A stretch of DNA of 64,000 nucleotides from Catajapyx aquilonaris. Its lineage: Eukaryota. Of this stretch, positions 141 to 51,877 are shown piece by piece; the first letter of the stretch is position 1; each line of letters starts with the position of its first letter. Below the pieces are notes generated by a model, which was not told the DNA's origin, ran no database searches, and saw only the letters and a list, made by a program, of their open reading frames with translations. The stretch covers positions 1-64,000 of the forward strand of contig JYFJ02000876.1 of NCBI GenBank assembly GCA_000934665.2. Direction: 5' to 3'. Position numbers and translations under genes: made by a program.

Positions 141-335
141 TGAAGAAAATAATACACGTACAGTACCGGTATGTGAAGAAAATAATACACGTACTGTATA
201 CAGTATATGAAGAAAATAATACACGCACTGTACAGTATATGAAGAAAATAATACACATACTGTACAATATATGAAGAAAATAATACCCGTAGAGTATATA
301 TTGTGAAGAAAATGATACACGTATATTACACGTAT
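141..335. repeat. Minisatellite, ~32-34 bp unit x6 (TGAAGAAAATAATACACGTACTGTAYAGTATA-like)
   Basis: The motif tgaagaaaat(a/g)atac recurs six times at ~32-34 bp spacing; it explains the three overlapping junk ORFs here. Confidence 0.9.
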
Positions 336-3230: not shown

Positions 3231-3327
3231 TTGGACGAAGACAGAATGGGCTCCTCCTTCGACGAGTTTTTAGAGCTGGCCGAGTGGACTATAAAGGGAC
3301 TCAAGGAAGGCGAATTGAGTATTCAAG
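3231..3327 (+). CDS. Gene A exon: loop + helix 2 of degenerate bHLH (LDEDRMGSSFDEFLELAEWTIKGLKEGELSIQ)
   Basis: Long polypyrimidine tract with ttttcag acceptor; CAAG|gtgagt donor; 97 nt, phase 0 to phase 1, matching the helix-2 exon layout of Hes/Hey genes. Confidence 0.75.
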
Positions 3328-6300
3328 GTGAGTCTCAGGAAAGGGGGCGACAGGGGAAAAGAAGAGGGGGGAGGGGGGAGATATTTTTTATTATAAGTTT
3401 TTTTTTGCCTTCTAAGAAAAGGGTTATGAAAGTTTTGGATGTCCAATGATATCATGTTTCTTGGACGGTACGTTTGAGAAACGGCCCTGGCCAACCTCCT
3501 AATAGGAAGGTCACAGGAAGTTTCCGGTGACATCACAATATTATTATTATTATATTTACAGTATTTTGCATTAAAAATATAGCAATATTGCACCATCAGT
3601 GTCATCTGCAATAATATGTAACAATTGACAAAATTTATCTGCGAGATTTGATTTTTTTAATGGGCCTAATTATTTTCGTAGGATTTTAATTATACAGGGT
3701 GACCCAAAAATCCAACCTACCATACAATATCTAAATATATAAAACAGAAAGTTGGCTGTATGTCCGGGCTACCTAACCTACTTCCGGGCTCTTGAGTGCT
3801 GAAACTTGGGAAGCATATATATGTCCAGACTTTTGGATCACCCTGTATAGTTTCTTACAAGTATTACTTTATATGTCCATGACACCCCTCCCAAAAAAAT
3901 CCTAGGTTGGCCCACACATCCCTTTGGTGTCATGGGAAAAACTGTCCTGACATTAAAAAAAGCCACAGCGTGTAAAAAGGGGGTAACGTAATATCCAACG
4001 CCAATTACCCACCTTCTAAGGTGGCAAATTCAACAATAAAGCCAAGTAACAATAGCGAAAAAACCCTTTCGCCGGACACACCGAATATTACGAGGGGGGT
4101 CGTTCCTGAGAGACATTTTCGTTCCGGAGATCTTCCTCTCTTCTTTTTTTTGACATACCCTGTACCCATACTGAAGTCGACCCTCACTTTGGGGGTTAAA
4201 AAAATCCCCCTATAGGGTTTTTGCTGGCACGGGCCATTGCTAGAACCATAGCAAAAACATTACTTGTTTTTTTCATATATAGACACACACACTACACCCA
4301 AAGTGGGGAGTGCCCCAAGAAGTTTTTGGGACCCCTCAGGTAACCTCACCTGGGGAAGAAAATGACTCGACCCTTTTTCCCTGATCTTCCCACGCCTATC
4401 TCGTATACTTCATTTACCCTTGGCCTGGTCTTTTTCCGTTTGCTTGGCCCCTTCTTTTCCACGTGGGGCCCTCTCTGTCTGCCCCCCCCTTCCTCTCATT
4501 ACCATCTTTACATAACGCTCTCTCTCTCTCTCACTCACTGAATGTTTTATTACGTAGAAAAAGTTGGGTGCTTTAATTGCTATTGGGTCGGTTTTTGGGG
4601 TTGGCTGTTTTTAGAATGCAAACGTTTTTTAATGAATGCAAATTGTATGTTTTGTTGTCCACCTGCGAAGAGGATCACGCTAAGAGCTAGTTTTTCGTGA
4701 GAACTTTTCCTCTAGGGTGGTCACTCATCGGGAGCAATTTTTTTTAAACAGTGTCGAATCGGGTTGATAAGTACTTTAAAATTGTTGAGATTACCCGGAA
4801 AGTGGACTAATAGTGTACAATCTTTAGAAATGACTTTATTAGGGACTTGCTTTTTTTAAAAAAAGGAGTTGATGCTAAATTATGAGGAACTAAACTCATG
4901 CCAATAGTTGTACCATGTTTGGAACACTAACAAAGTCGAAAGGTATCATTTGCATTGTAAGGAGAAAAAAAAGTGATGTTCCTGTATCATTTACGAACAA
5001 TTTCAGGGGTATTAGGGGTAATGGCTTCATCCTGGTGGAGGTCAACTTGCTTGTCACAGTAACACCGATTGTTACGTTAAGGTCATTGATAATTCCACTG
5101 CATTGTCCTCAGCCTGAAGAATGATTATTAACATATAAAGGCAACATTTATGATATGGGTTGGCATTAGTAATTCTACGTAATAAACAATCGATCAGCAT
5201 TTGTTGCAAAAAGGAATAGCCATAATATACGTACATGATTGTATTGTACGAGGTGACACCATGCCATGTGTTTATCGCATGCATTAATAGCAAAACAATT
5301 CAATAATAATCACCAGCCATATCTCCTATAATAACTGTAATCTTGGCGTTGCACCGCAATCACTATATGGCTCAATGCAATTGACATGTCCATAAAATAA
5401 CCCGATAATAGATCCTGCATTTACAGCTAAAACTAACCAGTCAACGTTACCCACCCGACAAAAAAACACTTATTTTAAAAACATTAACCTTGTGCAATTC
5501 AGGTCTTCAATTGTAACAATAGAGTGCTAAAAGTATGTCACGTTTCCTCAGGTGTGTGTGGGGTATTTTTACAATTCCCGGTTTTCACTCTCTTAATTTA
5601 TTGGCCTATTATCCTAAACTTCCACTTATCTCACCACGGGGGAAAAAATACACACCTGTTTATTGCTATAGAAACACTTTCTAATTAAACTCTTAGGAAA
5701 TGAAATTAACCAGTAAGACACTGAAGAAACTGCAAAAAAAAAAAAATTACAAGCACGTTTCCTTGAGCATGACGCCGTAAGAACCTCATACGAATCATTT
5801 TGGATGCCATGGGTGCCCCTGACCCATGACAGGGATCGGACATAGACCTTGAATCGCATGCGTAACGCTACCGGTACGATGGCTTCTGGTATAGTAGCAA
5901 AAACTTTAAATTCACCAAAAAAAAAAAGGATTTCCATGTATCAACTCCTGAATCGCAATCAGAATTTTGATGATGGCTATAGGACCTGGGGAAGGTGAAA
6001 GTTGTCTCCTGGCAGTGGGTCATTGGGTCTTATGGCCCCCGGGGGTCAAGAGGTCATCTGGCAGTTGAGGGACGGCCGGTGGTGCAAAAACCCATCCCTT
6101 AATTCTATTTCCTTCTTTGGCAAGCAGTCTCAAGTCAGGATTTCTAACCGTGCCCTTCTCAGGATGACCCTCGATGTTGCAAGCCAGTTAATTGTGTACT
6201 TACATGATGATAAGATGGCTTTTGATCTATGTGAGGACCGCTGTTTTTTTTTGGGGGGGGGGGGNAGATTAAGAAAAGGTGAAGGGGATTGACCCACTAT

Positions 6301-6819
6301 TTGGGACTGGTCATCGAAAAAAACCCATAAATAACAGCTCTTTTTCGATGATAAAAAGTCTACTCGAATCACGCTCTTGTATTTTCCGGGTGTAAATCAT
6401 ACCTGTACGCTCAATGCACATTTTGGTCATTGCACCCCTCCACAGATTCGCTCGAGAGCCTAGCAGGATACTTGGGCCGACCCGATGTCCCGGACACCTC
6501 AGAACTGGAGGACTCCCAACAGCAGGAGAAGGACAACGAGTTCATCCGGGCTGGGTTCACGAACTGTATGAACGAAGCCATCCGGTACCTGGTGGAAGAA
6601 GAGCAGCTGTCCACCGAGGACCCGATTGTCACTGGTCTTCGCCAACATCTGGTCAGCCAACAGGACCACCTCGAGTATGACCGGCTACTACACGAGGACA
6701 ATAAGCAGGAGACGACGACAACACCGGACACTCGACGTTTCAGTTGCGTGGTGTGTGTGCAACCTAATGTGATAAGGACTGCTGACCTGCATGAGGATGA
6801 CCGGCCACCTTCCATATGA
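3231..6819 (+). CDS. Divergent bHLH-Orange protein, gene A (5'-partial; exons 3231-3327 and 6446-6819)
   Basis: The exons join in phase (G|AT = Asp). They give a helix-2-like segment (GSSFDEFLELAEWTIKGLKE) followed by an Orange domain (FIRAGFTNCMNEAIRYLVEEEQLSTEDPIVTGLRQHL). Stop TGA ends at 6819 with no WRPW. No helix-1 exon was found in the window, so it is probably upstream. Confidence 0.8.
3695..3845. mobile_element. Tc1/mariner-type MITE remnant
   Basis: ta|cagggtgacccaaaaatc ... gacttttggatcaccctg|ta: imperfect ~18-bp TIRs starting CAGGGTG, flanked by TA. Confidence 0.7.
6446..6819 (+). CDS. Gene A terminal exon: Orange domain and C-terminal tail
   Basis: ccacag acceptor; frame of ORF 6430..6819; AGF..C..E..RYL...E.L...DP....L..HL Orange pattern; GC-rich coding-like composition; AATAAA near 7107 and 7464. 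Confidence 0.88.
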
Positions 6820-9800
6820 CCCATGTGCGCGGATATAGTGTGTGTGCGGACGAAATCTTCTTTTCCTCTTCCTTTCGCTGTCCTTCACATGCCTCATGAT
6901 CTCCAAAATATGATCTCTGCCGCTATTGGTATTAAAAGTGTGCCTGAACTGGAAGGTGGTCATCCTGAGGAAGGCCTCTGTCTAATCAACAAGGTAATTA
7001 ACAAGGGGGTACCATCAACGCCCTTTTTATTGTTTACGACATGACTGGTACCAACCACACAAATAGTGCCCCTCTGCATTGTCATTCCAGCCGCTTGTTT
7101 ATTCCCAATAAATTGGTGGCACACACACACAAAAAAAGAGGTTCAAAAACGTGCACCAATTAAACTTGGGTAACACTAATGAAGTCAGAACATGGAAATC
7201 CATTGCGATAAAAATCAAGCCTGAGTTTCTTTAGTTGCTAAAGAAGTTGTAATAGGGATGAAATATCGGCTTATTTGCGTCAATAACAGGTCATTATCTG
7301 GTGGAGAGAAAACGTTTTTGAGGCGAAGTGAAATGGTGATCCTGCACACCTCTGGTGCTTAAAGATGCAATTTATCAACTTGCGAGCCTTCCACTTCTGT
7401 GAAGAAATATGTGAAACAAAAAAGCATTTTCTATCACTTGTACAAAAAAATATTATGTTTAAAAATAAAGCGGTTGATTTGGTTTCAAAGTTGTGTTGAA
7501 TGTATGGACACGACTAGATAAAAATCGAGTGTGTCAATCCGATATCTTAATTTAACATTAATGTAGGCGGTTTTTTTTGTTTAAGAAATATAAGGAGGCA
7601 AATGGGAGTGATCTGGAATTCGTGTCGTTATGTGGCAGTAGCTGGCTTAAATTGCGTTTATGACCATCAACACGTCGCTTGATTCGTTCATTTGTGTCAA
7701 TTAATTAAGTTAAAGTGGGTAACAACAATGATAATTATGCTCACATTGTGTGAAGCACTTTCGGACATAATATTATTTCATAAATGGTACGTAAATTTGG
7801 GATCACTCCTTAGGCCTATAGCTGCATTAGTGTTGTTTTTTTTAGAAAAATTACACATACGTAATTAATTGTTTTAAAATCTGTTAAACATTTCACTGAT
7901 TGGCTCCTGACTGTATAGTGAATCTGTTATTGGTGAAGAGTTGCAAGTAAAATTATCATTTGTTACTTTTTTATGTTGGTGATTGTGAGAAAACGTTGTT
8001 ATGGTTGTTTTATTGCTCTGTACATAACTGAATACCTTTTTTTTGTAGCGCAATAAAAAAAATGAGAGAAATGAACCGCACTTTTGTTTTTCTTTTTTTT
8101 TCACTGCATGAAAAGCTCGTTTCACGGAATCTCTGAATGTGACACGTACGAAAACAAACATTAAAATTCCTCGCATGTACTCGTGACGATCATAAGTCGT
8201 CAAGATGAGCGTGCTTGTAGGCCATATTTCAAAGGACTAAAAGTCGTCTCAGGTAAGCGAAGAATTAGACCCTCACCGGCATACCATGCGAATTGCACCC
8301 GAAATTGAAATAGCAGCATGTACCTAAATTGCACTTTATGACCTTGGCCCTACATAATCATACCAGTCAATGACTGGTCAATCTGGCCATATGTCAGTTC
8401 AATAAAACATATGTTATTCTCAATACAACCGGTTTTTTAAAAACTAATCAAGTGTAGCATTTGGCTGACCAACAATGTAACCTACCTATAAAAAATTAAA
8501 GTCATGCAACTAGGATGAAAATTGCAGACTTTTTTTTTGCGACCAAACCATTTCTAAGAAATGTTTCGCATGCTGCCTTAGAAGTATTTCCGGACCTCAA
8601 CATTCCATGCACTGCAGCTGTTGAACAGGCGCCGATAGGGGTTGACCCTCCCCCCCCCCNAACAGAATATGTCCAGACTTAGTGTTTGGCGATCCTTTTT
8701 GGAGAAACAGGTTCATGGTGTGAGTTAGGAGACCCATTTTGAGTAGAGTCGCTCCGATACAAAACACAGGACGTTCCTCCCCAGTAATGGATCCGCTGAT
8801 TTAAGGCAACCCATAAGGTTTGTGTTCGCGCAACGTTCTTTCAGCAGGGTACATGACCGACCAAAAAAAGCGAAGCCGGTTCACACCTACCAAAGGATGT
8901 GGCAAAAGATAGCAAATCTAGTGGTTAAATCAGGAAAAAAAATTATATTTTAAGAAAACTGTATAGGTAACATCTAGAGGTAACAGCTGGCAGAAAAATG
9001 GCCACGTTCCTTCCACGAGCTTTGTCGCAGCTAATCTGGCAATAAATCAGCCACAATATTTGAGAAGCAAATGTGGTTATGAATATAAATAAATATTTAT
9101 TCTCCCCCCTCCCTCCCTTCCCTCCATTTATGCGAAGGAGCAAGGTTCTGAAGAGTGTCCACCTCATGGGGAGAAGAAGCAACGAGGGCAAGCTTTTGGC
9201 TTGGATCAAAACCTAAGGGGCCAGACTGTCTCACCTGCCAACCCATTTGTTTTTACCCTCCTTTTCTAGCTCTTCTTCTTCTTCTTCTTCTTTTGCAGAA
9301 GGGGGCTCTTCGGCCCCACCCCCACCCCTAGTCCTGACCTGCCAACCATCTGGTTGAGTCCAGGACACCACCTGGCAGGGCCTTCTGGCACAGGAGGACC
9401 CTACCTATACAACCAGCACCACTAACCAAATGTCCGTCCTAATCCACTTCTATGTTGGAAAGATTGTGCTCTAGTTCCAGCCACTATTTTACAGCTTTTA
9501 AAATAAAAAAAAGTGAAGTAGGCCACTAACAGCTGCAACAACGATTCATCCACAGGTAATATCTAATATAGGTAAAGAATTAGCCATTATTAGCAACAAT
9601 GTTGCTCAGTCAGATCTCGTGTACTTATTCAGCCTCAGAGGCCATTTCAAAATGGTGTGATGCAGACAGCTGAGCCCTCCCTGAAGTTAAAGGTTTTTCA
9701 GCAGCCACTTGCAAGTCAATGAGACTCCTCCAAATGAAACCCAATAACAATTTGTTCTCAGCACGTGAGCTCTACACACACAACAAAAAAACAACATGGT

Positions 9801-12652
9801 CGGCTTCTATTTCAGAAAAAAAAGATGCCGCAAAACTGTTAATTTCATATTCGATTACTGTTAATTACGGGCCACAAATTTAAATGGCCTCCACTCTTTT
9901 GTTTCTCTGAATGAGTTCTATTCGTTTTATTGACCACTGTTTATGGACTCCCGGCTTGGAATCTGGTTACGAAAATTCCACGGACCAGCAATTTGCATGC
10001 GCTTAATAGGTTTTATATGTCTACCCAAAATGGGACACATTCCTTGCCCATCATAGCACAATGGCGTAATAATGTCCTCCCACGACTGTAAGTGCAGACA
10101 CGGCAAGTGCAGCTCATGTTGGCCGCATTCTTCAGGCTGCAAATGGGCAAGAGATCCGCGTTGCATATGTATGTAACCCTCTCATCTAATGACACAGGCT
10201 GGTAATAAGATAATGGAGCTCGTTATGCTGTGGGGGTCCTGATGTGTCCTCTTGTCTTTCAAAATAGAAACGCATAGGAATGCCAAGAACACCTCGTTTA
10301 GAGACGGAGGAAGCTATAAGTTAGGCCTCGTCTGCCAGAGGTCATATGGGGCAAGGTTGCATTTTTCGCCAACAAAGGATGCCCCCGCGCGACACTGCCA
10401 TTTCCAGCCAAAAAAATTGCTCATTAAGTGTTCCACAAGCCTCTTTTGAAGCTGATGACAGCCGGTTAGCCTGCAGCCTATAACCTGTTTGTAGTGTTTA
10501 AGCCAGTCAACAATCAACAAGTGATAGCTTACATTTCCCCCCCCCCCCCCACAAAATCACATTACATGCCAATATGAACCAATGTGGCAGCTCCACGTGG
10601 TTTGTATTCAAAATGGTGTATCCACGTGGATTACTGCAAAATGGCGGCTGTTCAAGGACTTGTTCAAGGCTAGGTCCATGAAATGCAATGGTCAGTAATT
10701 ACAGTGATTACGACCTTAATTAAAAGTCTAATTTTACAGCCTGGGTTATTCCCAGCTTCATCTGTAAGCATGGCGATACTTTACCTTCCGATGTAATCCC
10801 CCCATAGAGGAGCCCACCCCAATGCCCCCAATTTGATGAATAACTTTCCAAATCCTCGTTCACAGGGTGCACCTCCCTTTGCTTCGGTTTCCTTCACCGA
10901 GCCTTGAAATTAATCAAAACTCCGGCCATGGAGAGTATCAATTACGAGCTTTTGTGGCCGCTAAAAAAGGGTATAAGATGGGTTGAAAAGACGAGTGAAC
11001 TTTAGTGTTGGAGGGGGGCGCCTCCTCATTACCCCCCAGCACCCCCAAGGACCACGTCTCAACTACAAAATACTTAAAATCAATCAAGCTTGCTCTAACA
11101 GTCCTTGGGAAGCACTAATTTTCCCATTAAATTCTCCCCGTAGTTAGTCATTTTCTTCAATTAAGTTGGAAAACCTCTTTAAAAGAAGGCTTGGGACATA
11201 GTAATTAATCTCTTGAAGGGAAATCGAAAGGGAGAGGTCCTCTCTTGGAGAAAGATTTTGGCAGGGGCCATCCATACAATGCAAAGGCACAATGGATCTT
11301 CGGCTTGTCCCGATTAGTCGTCTCCTAGAGTGATTAATGCCAAGATCAAGCTCAAACTCCAACCAAGGGCGCGGTTCGGTAGCTATTGGAAAATTCCTGG
11401 TTCACCATTTGTCTTCTGCTAACTATATTGATAATCGCATCTTGATTGAAGTCTGCTATAGAGAAGAAGGGCTTGTAAAATATTGCTGCCGATTTTATCA
11501 ACGATATTTCGATTGGACAATACACGTACAATGTGTTGAAAAAGGCAGCTGTGCGTACAAATTCAACAAAAGCTGAAAAATTCTGTTAATTATTTGAGCC
11601 GCACCAAAGGGCGGAAATATGAAATTGCCTACTAATATTATTCTTTTGATAGTAATCGCATGAAATTTAGTGTATACCCTGCTGGGAATTTGACCTATTA
11701 TTCAACCTAACGCGCACAAAAACGCGTTTTATTACCGACAATACGGCTAATTAAACCCATTTTTTTATTGCACCCCAGCTGGTTTCTCATGAGTGTGACA
11801 CAATGTTTCCAGTCGTGCTAGGGATCCCTCCTATTGACCACTGGTCATACATTAGGGATGCAAATAACCCTCTGAAAACAGTTGAGCCTGGGGGCCAATC
11901 AAGAAGCAGACACGCATATGGGTATGGGGGGTATGAGAGTGCCATGTAAAAAGGGAAGGTAAAAGGCTACCATTGTTGAATAAGAAAAAAAGAGGAACAT
12001 TTTTGCCCCTCTTGCTTCTGTGGCTCGGAACATAAAAAGTCACCCACAGGACCCTTATAGGACACACTTTTTTTGGACCCTCACATTTTTTTTTTCTCAC
12101 TTTGCTTTCAATGTATGTACCCGTTGCATTGGCACAAACAAATAAAAAAATCTGAAATCCACTCAAAAAAAATTGCTGTTTTCTATGAAAACGGGTTTTG
12201 AATTTTTGTTTCTTTTTTCAAGTTTGTAACCCCCTCTTTTTTATATGAAAAAAATGCTGGTAGGGAGAAGTTTGAATAGGTGAAGAAGGGGGGAAGGTAA
12301 CTGGACGAAAAGAAAAGCGACGGAAAAAAATGTTTTTGCCTCTTTTTTTTGGAGGAAAAAAATTATTGCGACGGTTGTGGATTTTTGTTTCGGAATCAAA
12401 AGGTTAAATCAAAATTTCGAGCTAGATGAGAAGACTTTCCCATATATTTTCACACACTTCAACGGTTACTAACTATAGCAGTTTTTTATTCAAGCAGGTT
12501 TTTCTTTTTAAAAATTCATCGGTCAACTAATTTTTCAGCTTGGTTGTTTGCCTCTATTGTTTAGTAAATATATTGTTTGTTTACACGTGTGCGCCCATTC
12601 ATGAACATGCAAGCCTTTAAAAAAATGAACTTCAAATTTCCTTACATCAACA

Positions 12653-13039
12653 AGTAGTAGCCCACGGCTTATTACGGAGCCTCATGGAAAAATTCCGCAG
12701 TGTCGCCACCGTCTATGCGAGTTTAACATGGGAAAGCGCCACTGCGGCGGTTTCTGTAACTAGTAAATATGCGTGGGAAGAGTCTCCAGCCAATCAGGAG
12801 GCTCGGCGAGAAGCTACGCTTTGAAAAGCAGCGGCGGCCCCCCGCGGCAGTGGCAGCACCGTCGCNTTCAAAGCGTAGCTTCTCGCCGAGCCTCCTGATT
12901 GGCTGGAGACTCTTCCCACGCATATTTACTAGTTACAGAAACCGCCGCAGTGGCGCTTTCCCATGTTAAACTCGCATAGACGGTGGCGACACTGCGGAAT
13001 TTTTCCATGAGGCTCCGTAATAAGCCGTGGGCTACTACT
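12653..13039. mobile_element. Palindromic element with Polinton/Maverick-type termini (non-autonomous derivative or collapsed full element)
   Basis: Two 173-bp inverted arms (12653-12825 and 12867-13039) with no mismatch seen; termini AGTAGTAG...CTACTACT; 6-bp direct repeat tcaaca on both flanks; an n at 12866 on the arm boundary. Confidence 0.75.
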
Positions 13040-15934: not shown

Positions 15935-16075
15935 GCCAAGGATGACCTCGGAGGTCAAGTCCAATGTGCTAAAAACCTTCCCCGTTAAAAACTACCCCTA
16001 ATGATCACCCTGGGGCATACATCGAGGCGTCCGTATTGCTATGCATCGGGAACAAGGGGACATACGTTGTGAAAA
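15935..16075 (+). repeat. Dispersed repeat, copy 1 (copy 2 near 45699-45828)
   Basis: gatgacctcggaggtcaag(t/c)ccaatgtgct(a/t)aaaaccttccccgttaaaaactacccctaatgatcaccct is nearly identical at both sites. Confidence 0.85.
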
Positions 16076-19000: not shown

Positions 19001-20021
19001 ACAATTTTGGTGGGGCTGGTTTTTGAAACCTGAAAAGTGGTTGCTGGTGGTCCCTATAAAGAGACAAAAGGTCCTCAGTGGGAGAGGCATGAAGAGGTCA
19101 GATACCAGCAGCTGCATGTACTCAGACAAGCGTTGGATCTGGCTCAATTGTGCGTGAATCTTTTGTGGGTCTCTCTTCCACCTTTCTGGTCGCATATTTT
19201 GGACCGTCCTGTTGGGTATACATATAGGCAAGGTCAGGCGATAACCCAGCTTCCGTTTCCTACATATTTTTTTTAATAACACAAAAATTCGGTTAAAAAA
19301 TATTTGGACCTGTCTGCATACACTTTCCAGTCGGCTTCTCTTAGATTTTAATACCGACCTTGGCCTGTTTTTTTCTCTCTCTCTTCTCCATCCCCCCCTC
19401 TGCCTTCCAGAAAAGAGACTTTTCTTTAAAATTCAAGAACCTTGAGAGTCTCCTTTGAGGAAATAGTCCTTGAGGCGAGAACAAATATTTGCTGGATCAT
19501 TGGATCCGGCGCACAAATTGCTGCTGACAAAAGTTGATCGCCTGAAAAGGTTGGGAATATAATATGCAATTTAGCGTGCCCCCAAAATGTAGGTTAGTTG
19601 AGGAAATCGGGGCCCAAATTTGACGGTTAAGATTTTTTTGGGTGTTGTCATGCTCAAGAGAGATAGACCCTGCTTTTTTTTTCCTTTACCCTTCTGTTAA
19701 GTGCTTGCAATGACCTTTGTTTTTATGTACAATTACCGCCTATAAGATGGAAGCAGTTTCTAACTTACACAATAAAATCCAGCATAAAATTATCATGAAG
19801 TATGTGATATTTCATAATTTTAATAATTTTATTAATGTTATCTCACCCCAAAAAAAGGTTATGCCCTCGTAAGGGGCTACATAATAAATAAATAAAAAAT
19901 ATTAAGGTTATCCCAATATGAGAATACATTGGAGAGAATGGGCCATATTGCAATTGTATTAGCTGTAGATGATGTAACAATGAACATGTTACGAGAAAAA
20001 AATTGAGTGAAAGTGTATTTA

Positions 20022-20211
20022 TTACCCTTTCGAAAATTTTGGACATTTTCTCACCAAGCATTTATCAAATCCAAATCCCAATTTATTTGGTTCATTACTT
20101 ATTGCACCAATCATATTACGCTTTCGAAAATTTTAGACATTTTCCTATACCAAGCATTTTATCAAATCCAAAAAAACCAATTTATTTGGTTCATTACTTA
20201 TTGCACCAATC
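20022..20211. repeat. Tandem duplication, ~95 bp x2
   Basis: ctttcgaaaatttt(g/a)gacattttc...ccaagcattt...ccaatttatttggttcattacttattgcaccaatc occurs twice; explains the repeated peptide in ORFs 20003 and 20007. Confidence 0.9.
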
Positions 20212-28877: not shown

Positions 28878-29078
28878 TCAGTGAGACGATTGTACTGAGT
28901 CATCCTCTCTTGTAAGAAGCCTGGTGCCGTCTTCCGTCTGGGTCGCAGCAGTACCCGGGGCACAACATGACCAACCTGTAGTTTCGACAGTATCTCTAGG
29001 TTGCAGTTCTCTTCTGGATGTGTACTCCCGGAAGACCCGGGGACAATCCAGCTGATGTCTTTGGTGCGTTAAGTGCTC
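28878..29078 (-). CDS. Gene B terminal exon (end of Orange domain + tail, 66 aa + TGA)
   Basis: tgtttcatccatag acceptor; EHLTHQRHQLD continues the Orange helix and aligns with QHLVSQQDHLE of gene A. Confidence 0.78.
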   Translation of the reverse strand, partial: EHLTHQRHQLDCPRVFREYTSRRELQPRDTVETTGWSCCAPGTAATQTEDGTRLLTREDDSVQSSH

Positions 29079-32000
29079 CTATGGATGAAACAGTCCGTTA
29101 CATAGATGGCGTACCCTCTCTGCACAGTGCTGCTGTGCGACTATTATGCGATTCACGAGTCCTGGCCTGTTAGGCTCCTCCCCCGTCCTCCGCCCTCTGA
29201 AGGCGAGGTTGCCACGTCCGCCATGGCCTCACACGCCTGCCAGGAGGATGGGGGAGAGCACTTGGCAGCAGTGGATCGCATTGGGCGGGGGAGGGGACAA
29301 CCAGGCCTGGAAATACGACGAACCACCTATCCCTTGTACAGACCGAACCGCGCACAAATGGCTCCTACTCGCGAGAATCACGAGCATTCCAGGCCTGATT
29401 TCTTCCGCCGCTGACGTAGGGAGGAGGTGGGTGGAGCCTAACAGGCCAGGACTCGTGAATACTACATGCACCCTTAAGTAAAGATCAGCCGATTTTTCTC
29501 CGTTTGTACCTGTAAGTCATGAAGAACTGGGTCACTAGTGGTCAGTCCCTCTTCCTCCACCAGATACTTGACCGCCTCCTGGAAACAGTAGTCGTACCCT
29601 GCCAGTACCACACTGTCATCGCTGTTGGTCTCTTCCTGTCCTTCTTCCTGCTCCGACGCCGACGTCTCTGTAACAATACATTTCTTTTTTTTTTCAATAC
29701 TCCAGAAGAAGACATTGACTTAGGATGTGCACGCGCTTAAAGGCCCCGGATTGTCTGGAGGGGGTGGTAGGGCTATAGGGGTGGAAAAGAGCCGCCTCGT
29801 AAAGCAAGCTAACTGTCAATTAGCCCCGGCAGAGTATCTGATGGAAGTGCCAACCGACCTTGTCAACCAACGCGCCTCGGAATGCAGGCAACCATCTCAA
29901 GTCGAAGGAGATTTTACACATTCCCTTAACCTTTTTTTGTGTGTGTGTGTGTCAAAAAGTTGCAGACCATGAAGATGACAATTCCTGACCGTGCGCACTT
30001 GGAAGTTTTTTTTTTGCGACAGTGGACACCTGGGGGTGCCTAATTTGGATTAGTTATTACATGGGTGGCAGTCAAAACACAAGAGACCTTTTGGCTTGAG
30101 TTGACCAATAAATGACTGGAATTAGTTATGTCGCTTAATGCCTTGTTTCGCAGGATGCAAAAAAGGGATGTTAATTTCCCAAGGCATAATTTACCTATAG
30201 AAGATGTCCTTACTCCGTAAGCTAATGCATATTAACCGGCCTTTATTAGCTACAATTTTTTGTCATTTTAATCATAAATATGCCATGTAGGCAGGTTATG
30301 TAGTCAACAAGTACATAACGAACGAAGCGTAATTATAACGGAATAAACTGTTGACAGCACAATTTTTGCGATTCGGCCATTGAGACTAATTAGTACGTTA
30401 TTGTCACATACTCAGCTGTTTATCACACTGGGTAATTCCGCCATAAATTTATTAACGTCACTCATAATGGATTTGTTGTGTACACTAACTATTTTGCTGA
30501 AAAATATAGGCGTATATTGGCCATGGGATGTACTGTACTATACGATAATATCTGCAATGATAAATATCCCTTTTAACAGACTGGGTGTCATAAAATAGTC
30601 CACATCTCGCCTTTGACTACATTAAAAAAAATTCGAACTAAAATCAAGGCTGGCAGGTATCAGAATGTACACGAGCCAAATTGCTTCACTCAGCATCCCT
30701 AAGATGTGATGAATGGCACTTCGTGATGGGAACCAAATATTCGTTCGAAGGTTGAATCCTCAACAAACTGGTCCATGAAATATGTTGCATGAGCACCCCC
30801 AAAAAGCAGGATAGGTGATGTTATGAGGTCGACACGTTTTTCTTACACTTTTACTCCCCAAACTATTTTTCCACTTGCTCTTCACGCGAAGGTGCAAAAG
30901 TGGAATGCTGATTCCTTTAAGACCCCCCCATTTTTTTTCTTGTCTGAAATGAACGCGCCCATTACACTTTAAGAGAAAAAAAGGACGTCCTAAGAATCCA
31001 ACTGTGTACATCATGCAAAGTCAGCATACACACGCAATCTTTAAAAAAAAATGTCGGATAAAACGCATGATATTGCGTAAATTTGGGTTCGAGCTCGTAA
31101 ACTATCCAACTAATTTTTTTGCTGTTGCGATTCCTTTAATAAGGACTGTTTTCGCATCCGACAAAAAAAATATGGCGGCGTGTGTGGAGGACACCCAATA
31201 ACCTTGTAAAATAGACCTAATCACCATTATCAGCACGTGGAGATTCTGCCTATGATCACAATCTTCCAATTCCAAATTGGCTTCAGCAGATGTGAATGGA
31301 CCATCATGCTAAATGGTCACGACAACCACTATAAGGAATCATATAAAAATAATATTGCTTCCTAAAAGTGGTAGACCTTGTCCATGCTCTTATTAATATC
31401 TGGGTTAAATATTTTTTGTGTGGATATATGCACGATGCTGGGAAAATATGCAACCTGATTTCCACGCCTTTTTTTTACTATCAAACTATTGGCGGCTTGT
31501 ATCAAAAGGGGGGTATCAGGACAATCGGGCTGACTATATTAACATTCAAATGTGCTTCTAGAACTTGACCTTATAAGAGATGCGTACTATCCTTATATGG
31601 AAGTGAACGTGTTGTCCTTTCTCTGTGGATTATATATGGAGGCGTCAAAATCAAATTCCTGTAACGTGCCTTTGCGAAAAACGCGGGTCCATTGCAACCA
31701 TTTGTCCTCCTGAAGTTAACCTAAAGAAACTATTAGGAAGATGCCAGACACGTTACAGTGACCAATGTTAAGCCACTGTGACATGAAACACTGTGGATTT
31801 GGATGAATAGGGATAACTCAATTTAATTAACGAGGACCGTCCGGTGAACTGTATTGGCCAGAAAGGTAAGGATTAACTTGTCGAAAAAGGACGTGTGAAA
31901 AATTAGAAAGGGTTGTACCCATCCCCCCCCCCCTTTTTTGGCCGAGGATGAACAACAGGGTGTGCCCGAAAGTGACAGTACTCGAAATAATTGCAGGGGG

Positions 32001-44000: not shown

Positions 44001-47000
44001 TTATCACGGTTGATAACTCGCAATCGCGTTATCTTTCAAGTGTGTAATGCAGTAAGCCGAAGTGCCACTTAAACGTATTGAAATGGCCTCATGTATTCAA
44101 TGGGCTGGGTTGCTGGTGAAAACAATACGCTCTAAAAAGACAATTTCAGCTTCAAATTGAACGTAAACCGGCTTATGTAATTGACTAGACTCCCAAAATA
44201 GAGTTACGTCACTTACGGATTAAGCATTATATTTAAGCCAGATTTCCATAATTGAAGGGCATTAATATCATCTAATAATTTTTGGAACGAACCTTAATTG
44301 CAGGCAGCCATCATTTTTTTAAAAAAGATTTAAGAGGATAATATTGACAGTATAAGCCCAGTCGGCACCCATTGCCTCCAACCAATAAATAGGTCACCAT
44401 AAACACTTTTTTTTGGAAGGTAATTAAGGAGGCCCACTCCCGAAATTTTAATCATGCAATAAGTCTAGTGGAGGACCCCAAAGCTCGCATAATTCCCTTT
44501 CCAGACGTTTTTACAACGGGTTTCTTCAGCTCAGAGGAATTAACCTTAACCCTTCCTAGCATATTAACGAACCGAAGATGACACCTCCTCATTTCCCAAA
44601 GTGCCGAATTAGAGCCAAAATGGGTAGGCGTTTTAGGCTTATCTGATGAGTCGTCTTTGGATAATTTTTTTTTCTTTGGAAGTGACCATATAAGGGGGGG
44701 TAGCAGGTCTCTGAGTGGATGGTTCGGCTTCCATGTAAATAAGACCCCCAAAAACCTGAGGGCATCTTCTGTAAAAACTCCAAAAAAAAGTGCCGACTTG
44801 TCTTTTCGGTGGAGTCAATCAGAAGGATTAGTTCGGTTCAGGACTAATGACCTGGACCAAGGATACTTCCTGAGAACCACTAATCTATGGAATGGACCAG
44901 TTCATCATGTTCTGGGGGACTCGGGGTTTATTGCAAAGAAGCAATGGCTATCAATGTCAGGGACGAATTCGTAAAAATTGAAAAATTGGGTGTCGTGTCA
45001 CAGCACTTTCATTGGGGAAGAACCAAGGTGAGGCTGTAAATTGCCCAATTGACAGGTAATGTCAAAAGTGGTTTGCGTTAGATGCACGCAACATTTGGGG
45101 GGGGTTAAAATCAGTGCGACACTGAGAAGGTGTCCTTCTTGACACTTGCACGGTCCGTTGGAACCACGGTGAATTGGTATAGTGGCGCCTTTCTTTTTCG
45201 GATGACAACCACGGAGGCGTGAGGAAGGCGGCCATATTCAGGGGGTTCCCTATTTCGTCTTGGCCACCCTCCTGTGAACGACGGTCATTCAGCCTCATCG
45301 GAACCAGCATTGTCCTGACCCTCTTCTGAAGCCAGCCAAGCACGTAGGCCCCTACTCCGCCCAAACCTTACACTTTTGGAGAGGACCCCCCTTGAAGGCG
45401 GCTTCCAAGGAAACCAGCCAGATTCATTTACAAAAGTACAAATTTCCGCCTTTTGGAACCCCCAGTCCCCCGATGCAGTTGTCTGGAGGCCTCATTTGTC
45501 ATTTTCGCGGCGCTCAAGGGGTCGGAGGATTCGTTGCGCTCCGGACACCTCCCCTTATGGGTCATTGCACCCACAAGAAGTGCAACGGTGGCTGAGCACG
45601 AGTCAAATCTTTAAGGGTCAGGTTTGGTGTCCAAATGTGTGGAGTTGTTGACCAGAGACATATGTGCGAGACTCGTGCCATAAGCAACGCCTCCTGCGGC
45701 CAATGATGACCTCGGAGGTCAAGCCCAATGTGCTTAAAACCTTCCCCGTTAAAAACTACCCCTAATGATCACCCTAGGGCATATGTCGATCCCTCCGTAT
45801 TGATTTGTATCGGGAACGTACAGACATATGTCCTATGCAGCAAATTCCGAACACCTAATGGTTCAATATTGCGAAACGTAGCTCCCTGTAGCAACTCGCA
45901 ATATGATTAACGTCCCATTCTCACGCACAATATTTTACTTCATGGTTGTCATGTGCTCCTGTGATTTACAATCAACTTGCCACATTTCAGCTCAATTACT
46001 GTTCCACAAACTTTTAAAAATCTGCCCTCATTATGCAAATTCAGCTAATAAACTCAACGACCTTTAACCCCCGTCGGGCAATCGTATAAAAACCACAAAT
46101 TTTTGCTGGAGCCCACCAATGGTCTCAAGGTCCTCATACGTACAAAAAGGGGGTGCCTTGGAAAAGTAGTCAGGGTCTAAAGATTCAAATCAGCTCATGT
46201 GTATCACTCAATTAACTCATTATCGGTGGAATCCCACATCAAATCTCACATCAACTTAATGGCGCGTCATTAGGACCTGCTCTTTTTTTACATCCAAAAA
46301 TTTAACCTTGGATAAATTTGATCCAGTTTTATATCGCATTAAAGGAAGGGTTCGCGGCGTGAATAAAAATGACACCCCAATCTTTAATGAGACCGGCGGG
46401 GTAATCGCATGCAACAATGTGTTGACTTTTAATAATTCATTCACTGCACGATTTTTTTTTACATATCAATCGTCGATTTTTTGGAGCAATTAGGACCATA
46501 TCTGGGGTGCCCTAATTATAAAATGCAAAAATCTTGTCCAGCCAATCGATTGGCTTATTTATAGGGCCGGTTAGACACATGACATAATCTTTTAAGGACA
46601 GATATTTATAGTAGGATCAGTGTGCCTACTAATTTAAGCTCAATCTGTGCAAACTCCAAAGATGAAACCGGATTTGAAATGTGCAATAAGTCATTTTTAT
46701 CTCGTTGATCTTTAAAGGTTAAAGCAAGAGTGCTTTGCATTTGGGGATTTAAAAGTTCAAAAAATGTCGGCTATAAACATGCAAATTCTGATGTTCTCCC
46801 GCCTATTGGTATGCTGGATCCAACTTGAGGACTAATTGCAAGGGCAAGTCCTAGACACGTTTCCTAAATTTGGTGGAAAAAAGAGTGAACAAGATGGTGA
46901 TGGGGGAGAGCCACATCGTCTTGGAGTTTTCTTAGAGGGTAACAAAGTCGCCTTAATTGAGCAAAGAGGCATTTCGACCAGACACCTTTCCCATGTTCAG

Positions 47001-50000: not shown

Positions 50001-51877
50001 CCTTTACAATCAATTCGGTCATACCGGATTGTTCTCTTTTTTTTTTTACCCCAACCCCAACCCTGTCATTCACCAGACATTACGTAGACTACTTTTTTTT
50101 TATATAACTCCAGGTGAAACCTGCAAAAATAATTGAATTCATATAGGCTTCAGAATAAATTCATAACAATTACATTACAAGGTCATACGGTCGCCACGTA
50201 ATTATTTCCGGTTCTGTCTGGAGCCCTGTGATCTTCCTCTAGACCTTGAGACACACTCTTTTCAGGTGCATTCCTATAGTGTCATATTACGTCTTTTTCC
50301 TGGATGCACATCCGGTCCAACCACGCCTCTTCCTCCAAGGGTACCATCTCCCGAGAAATGACGGTCCTTTTCACTCATATATCCGCTTCCGTTCCATTAT
50401 GTCCTCTGACACACAACCCGTTACCATTACAGCAAAAGATGAAGACGAAGAACCGGACCCTCCTTTTTTGTCATATGACATTTCAGGAGATCTGATATCC
50501 GATATGTTCACAGTTGGTACACCGGTACATGGTTCGGTTAATCCAACTTTATTGTTTGTCCATTGGTTCTAAAAGTAAGAACTATTTTATGTACTGTTCG
50601 GTTCTTTTTTTTCCATCATCTGTTGCATCCAATCCCAAGCAAAAAGAGGAACAGTTGGCGAGGCGACAACACAACAGAAGGTAAAAGCCTTGGCTCTTCA
50701 GACCCCCCCCCCCCCGAAACCCTCCACTTAGGCCACTTTGGGGGCATCTGGCAGCTAGGCCATGGCCCAGACAGCAGGTCATGAGATGAAATTTTTACCC
50801 CAACTGGGGGTCATCCACTTTCACGGCAATATGCGCCGTTTTTTCTTCTTCTTATTCTTCATTGTTACATATACATTAATTGCTAAAAAGTATGAAGCCA
50901 TTTTATATCGGGCGAATTAATTACCCATCTTTTTTTTTTTGACTTCCATCTCTCCCATAGTCAGAACAAGAAAATCTGGTCAGAATGGGGAACCAGTTGC
51001 TGGAGAAGGATTGGAAGATTAAACCAGTTTGATATCCATTAGGCTTCCGACTATAGGCACTACAACGTTAGCAATGTAATACAAGGTTTCATAGCATTCG
51101 TAACAAAAGCTGGAAGGAAATTGCCTACGGAGTTTCCTGAAAACAAACAGAAGCCAGATGTCAGCTGCCCCATTGGACTCACCGAATTTGATCGTTTCCA
51201 TCCCTTTCTGCGGTCCTCCTGCGCTGTGTTGTTCATTGCTCACACGTTCATTCTATAAGAAATTATTAACAAGTATTAATTAAGTAAGAAACGATTAATA
51301 AAATTGGCAACACCGCCTGCAGCTAAGCCATTTTCTACTGAAATTGTGCAAGTATAATTTTGGCAACGCTGCTTGGCCCACTACTGCCACTCTCAGGACG
51401 AATACTACATGCACGTTGGTGATGAGTCACCGCGCGGACAAAAGGGCGCTCTCGTTCAACAGTTAGCGGACACGAACTATGCACGTTGGTGATTGAGTCA
51501 ATACGTTCAATAGAATAGAGAGATTAATTGAGGTCTTTCCCAGCTAATTACCTCGCGAATACTAGCCCAAAACGACCGTTTCATATCTTGGCTCTCAAAT
51601 GGCGCATCTGCCTCATGGACAAATGCGATAAACCAGTACCCAACATCTGCCTTTTGCCAAACTAGGTCATACCACCTCGGAGGGTACCTCCACGTGACCA
51701 ACTCACCTAAGCAGGAGCCGGACAGGTGTCACTCTAGGTTTTCCCGATCGTTTTTGAACCACCACCGAACGACTCTAACGGTCTGCACGTACTGGGGGCT
51801 GCTGCTGCTGCTGTGTGTGTGTGTCTCTCTCTCTCCCCCAACCAAAACTCCCTCACCTCCTGGTTTGCAAGGACCAT
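28878..51877 (-). CDS. Divergent bHLH-Orange protein, gene B (exons 51877-51857, 48885-48757, 41166-41076, 29667-29510, 29078-28878; ~199 aa)
   Basis: All introns are GT-AG and phases are consistent (0,0,1,0). Product: MVLANQE|DQALDRIIDEKRRKEQERVTRSMDELRAYRLTFDPSQQQPQQQ|EADSRSILQATLDRISDLQRRLHQTGSDSE|ETSASEQEEGQEETNSDDSVVLAGYDYCFQEAVKYLVEEEGLTTSDPVLHDLQ|EHLTHQRHQLDCPRVF...REDDSVQSSH*. The Orange region aligns with gene A. The first exon is the least certain. Confidence 0.8.
29151..29460. mobile_element. GC-rich MITE-like inverted-repeat element in last intron of gene B
   Basis: 28-bp TIRs attcacgagtcctggcctgttaggctcc / ggagcctaacaggccaggactcgtgaat, plus an inner inverted pair caggcctggaa / ttccaggcctg; no clear TSD. 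Confidence 0.75.
29510..29667 (-). CDS. Gene B exon: acidic linker + Orange domain
   Basis: ttgttacag acceptor, CAG|gtacaa donor; VVLAGYDYCFQEAVKYLVEEEGLTTSDPVLHDLQ closely parallels the gene A Orange domain. Confidence 0.88.
34705..35130. repeat. AT-rich low-complexity tract and ~38-bp minisatellite (AATAATAAATTACGCATTATGACTAAAAATACATA)
   Basis: Repeated tgaattat motifs grade into about four near-identical ~38-bp units at 34970-35115. Confidence 0.85.
37100..37428. mobile_element. Fold-back MITE with long imperfect TIRs (~140 bp)
   Basis: tatactacataagaggcgc...ccgccatctttgat is mirrored by atcaaagatggcgg...gcgccgcttatatagtata; ~43-bp spacer; TA at both ends. Confidence 0.85.
39971..40510 (+). 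mobile_element. DINE-1/Helentron-associated (HINE)-like element with internal 71-bp tandem array and terminal hairpin
   Basis: ttatac start, (GTCC)n microsatellite near 40008-40021, 71-bp units at 40117/40188/40259/40351, and a 33-bp-stem palindrome at 40431-40498 followed by ctctatattt. Repeats are certain; the family call is inferred. Confidence 0.6.
41076..41166 (-). CDS. Gene B exon: helix 2 (EADSRSILQATLDRISDLQRRLHQTGSDSE)
   Basis: ttctacag acceptor, GAAG|gtaatg donor; 91 nt, phase 0 to phase 1, exactly bridging the flanking exons; IL..T...I..LQ pattern of bHLH helix 2. Confidence 0.8.
45699..45828 (+). repeat. Dispersed repeat, copy 2 (copy 1 near 15935-16075)
   Basis: High identity to the 15.9-kb copy over ~130 bp. 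Confidence 0.85.
48757..48885 (-). CDS. Gene B exon: degenerate basic region + helix 1 + Gln-rich loop
   Basis: Long pyrimidine tract with gacag acceptor, CAG|gtgagt donor; 129 nt, phase 0-0; IIDEKRRKEQERVTRSMDELR resembles Hey IIEKRRRDRINNSLSELR. Confidence 0.82.
51857..51877 (-). CDS. Gene B putative first coding exon (MVLANQE)
   Basis: ATG with an in-frame upstream stop; GAG|gtgagg phase-0 donor. A competing donor (CAG|gtgagg) exists at 51912/51911. Confidence 0.45.

Follow-up and report, generated by a model that had tools for sequence, protein, structure and literature searches.

Introduction

Notch acts in the nucleus mainly through the Hes and Hey factors, which combine a bHLH with an Orange domain (bHLH-O); the role of the Orange domain itself is poorly defined. 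The Id/Extramacrochaetae (Id/Emc) proteins keep the HLH and lack the basic region. In the available part of PMC1950541, the C-terminal WRPW of the Hes/Hairy/E(spl) proteins is described as recruiting Groucho, and Orange as an extra protein-interaction surface that strengthens Hes/Hey dimers. The same part of that source reports that Helt binds Hes5 through Orange and lists BOIP, a non-bHLH protein, as a binder of the Hey1 Orange domain, which indicates that Orange can bind unrelated partners.

The two genes described here are located in a stretch of 64,000 nucleotides from Catajapyx aquilonaris (hereafter, the window). Their Orange domain has the same two-helix hairpin as that of the Hey proteins, represented by the HEY1 structure 2DB7. 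Unlike the Hey proteins, those encoded in the window are far shorter, have no detected bHLH and end neither in YRPW nor in a TE[IV]GAF-type sequence; these features are replaced by an acidic linker and, in gene 1, also by an unrelated N-terminal motif and an RPPSI end. As for the glycine that is a hallmark of the Hey basic region, no basic region was found in the window genes. The Hes/Hairy/E(spl) proteins have an Orange of the same Pfam family (PF07527), but the window genes lack their bHLH, their proline-containing basic region and their C-terminal WRPW. The resemblance to Id/Emc lies in the proposed logic, a pairing module alone with no DNA contact; Id/Emc keep the HLH, whereas the window genes keep Orange with no HLH detected. 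Database proteins with Orange only have the same Orange signature and acidic linker as the window genes and likewise lack an HLH; the insect members also resemble gene 1 in their N-terminal motif and in a C-terminal P-P-[SA]-x end. The identity to the window genes is just 42-56% over the Orange region. Two nemertean proteins, XP_074653217 (Tubulanus polymorphus) and a Lineus longissimus 'HEY-like' protein (P0094), have a family-type Orange and no WRPW/YRPW; unlike the window genes, they keep the HLH (25.7 and 23.5 bits) and carry a C-terminal NPAIA-type motif, which is missing from both window genes.

Two convergent genes with an Orange domain

The window carries two Orange-domain genes arranged tail-to-tail about 22 kb apart. 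Gene 1 is on the + strand and gene 2 on the - strand, and they are therefore convergent, in agreement with a preliminary description of this DNA; the stops that it placed at 6819 and 28878 were read as TGA 6817-6819 (+) and TGA 28880-28878 (-). That description had also quoted an unusual Orange signature, which was found letter for letter in both proteins given a splice of gene 2 between LQ and EHL, and an acidic linker before Orange, which is present in both genes. Comparison of the Orange exon along the sequence aligned gene 1 with gene 2 at 42% identity over 55 aa (tblastn E about 1e-10). When the HMM of the family described below was compared with the 3340 six-frame ORFs of the window, the only matches were the gene 1 locus (E 1.8e-30) and the gene 2 locus (two exons, E 1.6e-16 and 0.012), and no third family copy was detected. 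No Rfam family reached its gathering score in the window. It is very probable that these loci are correctly read as two convergent genes for small proteins of an Orange-only family.

The features of gene 1 are as follows:

3231..3327, + strand: exon A, with an acceptor-like AG at 3229-3230 and a donor GT at 3328-3329 (phase 1)
3328..6445, + strand: intron, GT..AG, missing from X5 record 11
6446..6819, + strand: exon B, ending in TGA 6817-6819; family HMM E 1.8e-30
6499..6705, + strand: Orange helical hairpin; the Pfam Hairy_orange match spans 6547-6660
6802..6816, + strand: C-terminal pentapeptide RPPSI, directly before the stop
6820..7766, + strand: 3' UTR, minimum extent; X5 record 11 is unbroken over 6444-7766

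Gene 1 is a two-exon gene, and its one junction is matched by a spliced contig and by colinear homology. The first in-frame ATG, at 3246, lies in exon A, and a conserved helical motif of the N-terminus is split between exon A and exon B. Exon B holds the latter part of this motif and also the acidic linker, Orange domain, tail and stop. From ATG 3246 the protein has about 151 aa. The splicing proposed in the preliminary description was supported by X5 record 11, a contig from an independent run of unrecorded kind, in which 3302-3325 is followed directly by 6444-7766. The letters AG at the joint can be assigned to either side, and the 24 letters 5' of the joint are fewer than the 31 of the bridging rule; X5 covers 12 of the 30 bins over 1-20000. 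The record is unbroken from 6444 to 7766, and therefore no coding exon is spliced 3' of the stop in that contig. The spliced gene is colinear with its insect relatives over the N-terminal motif, the Orange domain and the C-terminal end. An HMM of the N-terminal motif matched the exon A ORF with E 0.0014 (HMM positions 19-46) and continued in exon B (46-78); the model was made from arthropod relatives and gene 1's own N-terminus, so the match to exon A is partly circular. A short coding exon of gene 1 may lie upstream of the window, since the open frame extends back to the acceptor at 3231, and the amino acids encoded ahead of the ATG are similar to those of the relatives. No upstream start exon (MK..C-type, with a phase-0 donor) was found within 1-3230.

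The features of gene 2 are as follows:

29510..29667, - strand: Orange exon, with acceptor AG 29669-29668 (phase 1) and donor GT 29509-29508
29079..29509, - strand: intron within the Orange domain, GT..AG, with no gene 1 counterpart
28878..29078, - strand: last exon, with the second Orange helix, the tail and TGA 28880-28878
51838..51877, - strand: earlier-proposed start (doubtful), ATG 51877 followed by a consensus donor

The Orange exon of gene 2 holds the acidic linker and the first Orange helix as far as LQ, and it matches the family HMM at positions 13-62 (E 1.6e-16). Across the intron the match is contiguous, the upstream exon ending at HMM position 62 and the downstream exon starting at 63. 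Gene 2 requires at least one upstream exon because the ORF of the Orange exon has no in-frame ATG. The start at 51877 put forward in the preliminary description does not fit, its donor being of phase 0 and the acceptor at 29667 of phase 1, and the ORFs around 51877 gave no Pfam or family-HMM signal. A search of the - strand for a 5' exon of gene 2 with the N-terminal-motif HMM returned noise only. A 15-aa ORF at 44883-44927 with the PPSPP-type motif of gene 2's nearest relatives was rejected because stops flank it and a credible acceptor is missing. The nearest subgroup of gene 2 consists of the short proteins P0109/P0039 and is distinct from the insect type of gene 1.

The presence of the Orange domain was borne out by Pfam Hairy_orange (PF07527), which scored 26.0 bits on gene 1 (cut-off, 25.3); the first Orange exon of gene 2 alone scored 13.8 bits. 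Both genes have the family signature LAG[YF]..C..EA[IL]R[YF]L.E.E...P.V.GL..HL, in which G, C, L and E are invariant. A profile made from 80 family sequences had the HEY1 Orange (2DB7) as its sole match in the PDB (E 2.7e-4), and the residues common to the family and 2DB7 in the aligned stretch are G, [FY], C, E, RYL, DP and HL. In the AlphaFold2 model of gene 1 exon B (mean pLDDT 76.5), helices span residues 18-51 and 59-86, and the means of the 10-residue blocks over residues 31-80 are 93-98. The top PDB match of this model in Foldseek was 2db7_A, with a TM of 0.81 on the target and an rmsd of 1.1 Å over 50 columns; the E value is weak (0.15) because the domain is short. The Orange of gene 1 and gene 2 is a Hey-type two-helix hairpin, and the HEY1 Orange is its nearest described relative.

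A family of Orange-only proteins

A phmmer search of 1.84 billion representatives gave 133 matches, 131 of them family proteins. Pfam (E ≤ 0.001) recognized Hairy_orange in 87 matches; two others were ankyrin false matches and 44 had no Pfam match. An HLH was found in two of the 133, both nemertean and both within the 87 with Hairy_orange. The family proteins have a median length of 194 aa, nearly all start with M (128/131), and Orange begins at most 60 aa from the N-terminus in 84 of 130. Their hosts are insects, a spider, sea spiders, decapods and a snail, in addition to the nemerteans. The relatives include XP_069683239 (Periplaneta americana), XP_066996736 (Anabrus simplex), XP_063243681 (Bacillus rossius), XP_071041285 (Parasteatoda tepidariorum) and A0A2T7P5M0 (Pomacea canaliculata, 'Orange domain-containing protein'). 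Named relatives are labelled 'uncharacterized' or 'hypothetical', and one relative bears the name of an unrelated zinc-finger protein. The best Atlas cluster, an 'Orange domain-containing protein' group with a score of 0.91, has 52 members and Arthropoda as its commonest phylum; when the N-terminal 72 aa of P0006 were compared with the Atlas, no usable match resulted. Word-index protein searches yielded six matches with the family profile, three with P0015 (of the 'SPSPSI' subgroup) and none with exon B among lengths of 84-270 aa.

Gene 1 was found to encode a short protein that carries an acidic linker and lacks a bHLH, and the N-terminus of gene 2 lies outside its known exons. Both genes belong to a widespread invertebrate family of Orange-only proteins that is apparently unstudied. 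The suggestion that the subfamily might be undescribed held up, as full-text searching found no description of the family and the named relatives are uncharacterised. Full-text searching, whose coverage does not extend to subscription journals, found no paper on Orange proteins without a bHLH, and the available parts of PMC4172395, PMC3396596, PMC6361922, PMC4575448, PMC7738191 and PMC1950541 contain no description of such proteins.

Searches for a bHLH domain and for terminal motifs

The preliminary description had taken both proteins for bHLH factors with degenerate DNA-contact residues, a view that was not confirmed: no HLH was found in the exons, in flanking ORFs or in full-length relatives. 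The PF00010 and PF07527 scans were run on exon ORFs, not on spliced proteins, and at E ≤ 10 the HLH profile matched neither the exon ORFs of the two genes nor any of six full-length gene-1-type relatives. It also matched none of the 300 flanking ORFs scanned, out of 314 of at least 28 aa (+ strand, 1-3121; - strand, 29723-54705, this strand being scanned no further than 55978). No basic region was found in the exons or the flanking ORFs. The anatomy of an Id/emc-like HLH decoy, as had been proposed, is wrong because no HLH was detected. The 5' exons are incompletely known, so the absence of a bHLH rests on the relatives and the negative scans, and Pfam could miss a bHLH that is divided among small exons.

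These could accordingly be true bHLH-Orange genes whose degenerate-basic bHLH exons were missed, upstream of the window for gene 1 and among small exons at 29.7-59 kb for gene 2. The exon A frame is open back to the acceptor-like site at 3231, gene 2 needs an upstream exon, as described above, and one of the two nemertean members with an HLH lacks the basic-region glutamate. However, 129 of the 131 family proteins have no HLH at E ≤ 0.001, and this set includes RefSeq models and transcript-derived ORFs with an M near Orange. The closest full-length relatives of gene 1 and the 300 coding-strand ORFs were equally negative in the scans just described, and the N-terminal motif of gene 1, considered as a possible HLH remnant, was rejected after hhalign gave it a probability of 0.3% against the nemertean bHLH profile, both profiles being thin. 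Missed bHLH exons are therefore an improbable explanation of what is observed. Compared by eye with helix 2, the N-terminal motif has a faint likeness only. The family member P0068 retains a basic-region-like run without an HLH.

The two loci could instead be decaying, functionless relics of Hey-like genes that lost their 5' halves, as the missing start of gene 2 and the Orange Pfam scores near threshold might suggest. Against such decay, the reading frames are intact, the introns are canonical (GT..AG) and a spliced contig of gene 1 includes about 950 nt of 3' UTR. The same bHLH-less architecture, together with conserved terminal motifs, recurs in several phyla, a recurrence not predicted by independent decay. 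We regard this possibility as very improbable, and the reading of the two loci as Orange-only genes is preferred.

The observation that the proteins lack WRPW/YRPW was confirmed: neither ends in this way. An additional downstream exon supplying such a motif was sought, and no usable downstream same-strand [WYF]RPW was present; the six-frame scan of the window found [WYF]RPW only at 19352 and 37246, both on the + strand and neither usable. None of the 131 family proteins has WRPW/YRPW. A different C-terminal end, P-[PS]-[SA]-x, occurs in 11 of them, including the insect relatives closest to gene 1. This end and an N-terminal helical motif ending in ..L..LLG are the features of an insect-type subfamily, and of the two window genes they are found in gene 1 only. 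As judged from its sequence, gene 1 is of the insect type, having the helical motif at its N-terminus and an RPPS[IV]-like peptide at its C-terminus. The tail of gene 2 lacks the insect-type end motif, and many other family members, like gene 2, are without terminal motifs.

Relationship of the two genes

The preliminary description had considered the two genes locally duplicated paralogs with similar tails. That they are paralogues with a distinctive Orange was upheld; a local origin was not supported, while the AU tests permit a sister pair. The similarity of the tails alone is not significant (E 1.6). The best scores outside this animal, 64.4 and 57.0 bits (one per gene), exceed the 51.6 bits between gene 1 and gene 2, and the two genes differ in intron structure and terminal motifs. 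A careful tree of 47 rows was built from 46 chosen proteins of the 131. Gene 2 grouped in it with P0109 (support, 93/75), and gene 1 took a position without resolution. A quick tree of 121 rows was poorly searched, the constrained tree having a log-likelihood 58.9 units higher. P0002 and P0076 (ankyrin), P0062, P0063, P0081 and P0097 (short or partial) and rows with an Orange core below 55 aa were excluded, and P0030, which has a very long branch, was left out of the second quick build, on which one of two AU tests was run. The sister relationship of gene 1 and gene 2 was rejected neither in this test (p 0.97) nor in that on the careful tree, with the two genes as one clade (p 0.304). These comparisons are compatible with a local and with an ancient duplication.

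Predicted dimerization and possible function

A complex of two copies of exon B residues 12-92 was predicted with a score of 0.55, and the best of three controls scored 0.01. The runs agreed in at least 90% of the contacts, and the partner pLDDT was at least 68. Of 30 proteins solved as pairs of one chain, 21 reach the same mark, against none of the 23 that were solved as a single chain. The figure for eukaryotes is 17 of 29, with 7 of 16 in animals, but just one of the seven that lack an older solved relative reaches it. The predicted interface consists of exon B residues 36, 40, 43-44, 47-48, 51-52, 59-60, 63-64 and 67-68, and includes the invariant or near-invariant family columns G36, C40, E43, L48, E52, P59, L64, H67 and L68. 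The score may come from the predictor having memorised the solved entry for the HEY1 Orange, in which there are two chains. The model supports the binding of two copies of exon B, short of a demonstration.

These results suggest a mechanism. Orange-only proteins would themselves be unable to bind DNA, and their Orange hairpins would pair with themselves into a four-helix bundle. The Orange domains of Hey/Hes-type bHLH-O factors would probably be partners as well, and such pairing would tune or block these Notch effectors, as single-domain 'microprotein' inhibitors do. A Hey-like bHLH-O gene that lost its bHLH is the probable ancestor of the family; evidence for this descent is that the two nemertean members keep an HLH beside a family-type Orange and that P0068 keeps its basic-region-like run. 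We assign a probability of about 0.5 to the reading that non-DNA-binding Orange-only proteins dimerize via Orange and modulate Hey/Hes-type factors. That the gene 1 and gene 2 proteins act through bHLH-O partners is a more tentative proposition. Titration of Hes/Hey partners, which the preliminary description had proposed for HLH-Orange decoys, is a reasonable idea if predicted to occur via Orange and not via an HLH.

The same observations could be explained if the proteins were homodimeric adaptors, independent of Hes/Hey, with Orange only as the dimerization core and the N-terminal helices and RPPS[IV]-type peptide docking other partners. The terminal motifs of the gene 1 type are conserved and have no Hes/Hey counterpart, the modelled homodimer scored far above its controls, and BOIP, the non-bHLH protein listed in the available part of PMC1950541, is a precedent for a binder of another kind. 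However, the Orange residues shared with HEY1 are the best conserved and form the predicted interface, which fits Hey-type Orange pairing equally, and the terminal motifs are missing from gene 2 and many family members. We consider such adaptors possible but rather unlikely, and modulation of Hey/Hes-type factors through Orange is the reading followed here.

If conserved, a family that is nearly pure Orange would be a natural tool to study the stand-alone role of this domain. The Orange-only family is also a candidate for a post-translational control layer on Notch output in arthropods, molluscs and their allies, a layer of which no mention was found in the model-organism bHLH-O literature searched. 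In its broadest and least likely form, this proposal would make the Orange-only proteins a conserved, unrecognised protostome class of single-domain regulators of Notch output. They would be the counterpart of Id/Emc for the Orange domain, descended from a Hey-like ancestor by loss of the bHLH and forming non-DNA-binding Orange-Orange bundles with Hey/Hes/Cwo-type factors. The two genes, like two adjacent family genes of a sea spider, would be an old cluster with divided partner specificity. Recognition of the family would also correct a likely annotation trap, because Orange-only genes can readily be mistaken for truncated Hes/Hey genes.

Results and Discussion

Structure of the two genes

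The genes are convergent and end at the stop codons named in the preliminary description (TGA at 6817-6819, + strand, in gene 1 and TGA at 28880-28878, - strand, in gene 2). Their Orange exons share 42% identity over 55 residues (E ~1e-10, tblastn). An HMM of the Orange-only family, the proteins related to both genes, recognized gene 1 with an E-value of 1.8e-30 and the two exons of gene 2 with 1.6e-16 and 0.012. No third copy was found among the 3340 six-frame ORFs of the window (at least 12 aa), where the HMM matched only these two loci. Against the Pfam Hairy_orange cut-off of 25.3 bits, gene 1 reached 26.0 bits and the first half-domain of gene 2 reached 13.8 bits. Most of the preliminary observation held up; its bHLH label and outer coordinates did not. 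The exons and the intron of gene 1, and the Orange exons of gene 2, are as follows.

3231-3327, + strand: gene 1 exon A, with an ATG at 3246 and a GT donor at 3328
3328-6445, + strand: gene 1 intron, missing from the X5 contig
6446-6819, + strand: gene 1 exon B, with the Orange domain, in a phase that fits exon A
29667-29510, - strand: gene 2 upstream Orange exon, first half of the Orange-like stretch
29078-28878, - strand: gene 2 last exon, including the TGA

The clear Orange-like stretch of gene 1 lies in an ORF at 6355-6819 (+). A 1347-nt contig from X5, a run of unrecorded kind whose sample and study differ from those of the probable source runs, covers 3302-3325 and then directly 6444-7766, so that the intron is missing; the 5′ side of this junction is only 24 letters long, below the 31-letter criterion. 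Across the junction, the spliced product (151 aa from the ATG at 3246) is colinear with full-length insect relatives. An HMM of these relatives' N-termini, built with that of gene 1 included, matched exon A with its positions 19-46 and exon B with positions 46-78. The junction is thus supported by two independent lines, the contig and the colinear homology. Since the contig continues unbroken for about 950 nt beyond the stop, no downstream exon adds WRPW to gene 1. In the six frames of the window [WYF]RPW occurs only twice (0.54 expected from shuffles), each time on the + strand: at 37246 and, immediately following a stop, at 19352.

Read backwards from exon A, the frame stays open as far as an acceptor-like site at 3231, and the residues encoded ahead of the ATG are similar to those of relatives. 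Gene 1 may thus have another short coding exon before the window begins; a search of 1-3230 yielded none. A 244-nt X5 contig maps shortly before exon A, at 2843-3086 (+), and may be 5′ UTR or derive from an unspliced or unrelated transcript. The same region has a TATA-like run near 2994 and upstream ATGs at 3045 and 3121.

The Orange pieces of gene 2 are separated by a canonical GT..AG intron and correspond to family HMM coordinates 13-62 (upstream exon) and 63-106 (downstream exon), a contiguity that confirms the splice within the domain. Gene 2 requires at least one more upstream exon, given its phase-1 acceptor and the lack of an in-frame ATG; neither the N-terminal-motif HMM nor a motif search found such an exon on the - strand of the window. 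The consensus donor that follows the start previously placed at 51877, an ATG, is in phase 0, a misfit, and this start has no support.

Farther along the - strand, a 930-aa arginine/serine-rich open frame occupies 60073-62865, with a likely further exon at 59042-59521. Its long acidic repeat block consists of 24/48/72-nt tandem repeats (60419-60941). The protein (59042-62865, -) had no Pfam match above cut-off; by its sequence the gene looks like one for an SR-related nuclear protein, and it limits the space for the 5′ end of gene 2. Elsewhere, the regions ~12674-13340 and 15342-16008 are high-copy repeats or mobile elements, with summed contig depths from the DNA run X1 above 5000 vs about 30 at other positions.

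Absence of a bHLH region

A motif scan for a basic region returned nothing relevant. Pfam detected no HLH in the exon ORFs of either gene (E<=10), in 300/314 flanking ORFs of at least 28 aa (+ strand 1-3121, - strand 29723-54705; E<=1 and E<=0.1), or in six full-length gene-1-type relatives (E<=10). When the N-terminal motif was aligned as a profile with the bHLH from the two HLH-bearing family members, with thin profiles on both sides, the probability was 0.3%. Taken together, these results leave unsupported the earlier proposal of an atypical bHLH with degenerate DNA-contact residues. The stretch before the Orange domain in gene 1 is a conserved motif other than bHLH.

The Orange-only family

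When 1.84 billion representative proteins were searched by phmmer with exon B as query (E<=0.001), 133 matched, the best with an E-value of 6.8e-13.

Pfam content of the phmmer matches (Pfam E<=0.001)
Hairy_orange: 87/133
HLH besides Hairy_orange: 2/133 (P0016, P0094), within the 87
No Pfam family: 44/133
Ankyrin proteins: 2/133 (P0002, P0076), false

P0002 and P0076 are large ankyrin-repeat proteins that matched through repeated stretches (E-values of 1.2e-12 and 2.5e-5); these helical-repeat false positives were left out of all family counts. The 131 family proteins have a median length of 194 aa, 128 begin with M, and 84/130 have an Orange domain that begins in the first 60 residues. [WYF]RPW occurs in 0/131. 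Both HLH-bearing members are nemertean (Tubulanus and Lineus, the latter named 'HEY-like').

Sources of the other named family members
Insects: Anabrus simplex, Periplaneta americana, Bacillus rossius, Ephemera danica
Spider: Parasteatoda tepidariorum
Sea spiders: Pycnogonum litorale, Nymphon striatum
Decapods: Petrolisthes, Penaeus monodon
Snail: Pomacea canaliculata

In an 80-sequence alignment the invariant or near-invariant columns were G36, C40, E43, R46, L48, E52, P59, L64, H67 and L68 (exon B numbering). The best Atlas cluster, 'Orange domain-containing protein', scored 0.91 and has 52 members, with Arthropoda as the commonest phylum.

Orange-only proteins are already in databases under automatic names, all 'uncharacterized', 'hypothetical' or 'Orange domain-containing protein'. 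The excerpts returned by a full-text literature search held no description of bHLH-less Orange proteins, in agreement with the suggestion of a possibly undescribed subfamily; surveys of Hes/Hey families, as excerpted, choose genes by bHLH.

P0110 (Penaeus monodon XP_037794868) is annotated 'zinc finger CCCH domain-containing protein 13-like', a probable misannotation apparently derived from its low-complexity E/R/K-rich tail. A C-terminal motif of the type NNPAIA..LT.E[IL]..LL, followed by acidic residues, occurs in 18/131 members, including both HLH-bearing ones, and is absent from genes 1 and 2.

Likeness to Hey and possible action

The family profile found one PDB sequence, the human HEY1 Orange domain (2DB7; E 2.7e-4), which has G, F/Y, C, E, RYL, DP and HL in common with the family. 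The AlphaFold2 model of exon B (mean pLDDT 76.5; 10-residue block means of 93-98 over residues 31-80) consists of two long helices (residues 18-51 and residues 59-86) between disordered flanks. Its best Foldseek PDB match was 2db7_A (TM 0.81 on target, rmsd 1.1 A, 50 columns), with an E-value of 0.15 that is weak because the domain is short. The model of P0008, a compact insect-type relative (mean pLDDT 68), has three extra N-terminal helices with block means of ~59-75. By sequence and model, the nearest described kind is Hey. However, two of the three defining features of Hey/Hes, bHLH and W/YRPW, were looked for in genes 1 and 2 and not found; they are not Hey/Hes genes and represent a bHLH-less variant of the superfamily.

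Excerpts of a review (PMC1950541) describe the Orange domain as an additional protein-interaction surface that strengthens Hes/Hey dimers, through which Helt binds Hes5, and that represses when tethered to DNA. When two copies of residues 12-92 of gene 1 exon B were co-folded, the score was 0.55 vs 0.01 for the best of three controls, at least 90% of contacts agreed between runs, and partner pLDDT was at least 68. The predicted symmetric interface is made by the conserved columns of the 80-sequence alignment given above. The co-folding mark is reached by 21/30 solved one-chain pairs and 0/23 solved single chains; on eukaryotes it is reached by 17/29, and by only 1/7 without an older solved relative. 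The pass is possibly memory, because a two-chain HEY1 Orange entry is solved, and this modeling shows likeness, not binding.

We hypothesize that Orange-only proteins would have no DNA binding of their own, would pair via Orange with themselves and probably also with Hey/Hes-type partners, and would by this pairing modulate those partners. Such proteins would be comparable to Id/Emc and 'microprotein' inhibitors. In the main alternative they would act as adaptors through their terminal motifs, without depending on bHLH-O factors. Gene 1 and insect proteins have a common N-terminal motif and a common C-terminal P-[PS]-[SA]-x end (RPPSI in gene 1), the latter found in 11/131 family proteins and absent from gene 2.

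Origin of the family and of the pair

A putative descent of the family from a Hey-like bHLH-O ancestor that lost its bHLH would agree with the HLH kept in two nemertean members, the Hey-like family Orange domain, and P0068, which has a basic-region-like run without HLH; the tree described below is unrooted and shows no direction of change. In P0068, this Hey-like run (..EKRRR.., residues ~40-60) lies upstream of Orange, with no HLH by Pfam, and may be what is left of a former bHLH or reflect an incomplete gene model.

Gene 1 scored best with P0001 (64.4 bits) and P0003 (62.7 bits), and gene 2 with P0109 (57.0 bits) and P0039 (55.2 bits), short proteins of another subgroup; gene 1 vs gene 2 gave 51.6 bits. 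In a careful tree (47 rows x 71 columns), gene 2 grouped with P0109 at 93/75 support, nested within that subgroup at 91/78, and gene 1 was placed beside the insect-type clade without resolution. A sister relationship of genes 1 and 2 is not rejected by the AU test on this tree (p 0.304, log-likelihood difference 8.2), and in a 120-row quick analysis the constrained sister tree was better than the one found by free search. Intron structure and end motifs differ between the genes, which favors an old split, but local duplication may instead account for the pair. In Pycnogonum litorale, the family members P0041 and P0042 (g1893 and g1894) are numbered consecutively along a single 11.8-Mb contig, a hint that Orange-only genes form linked pairs in other places too.
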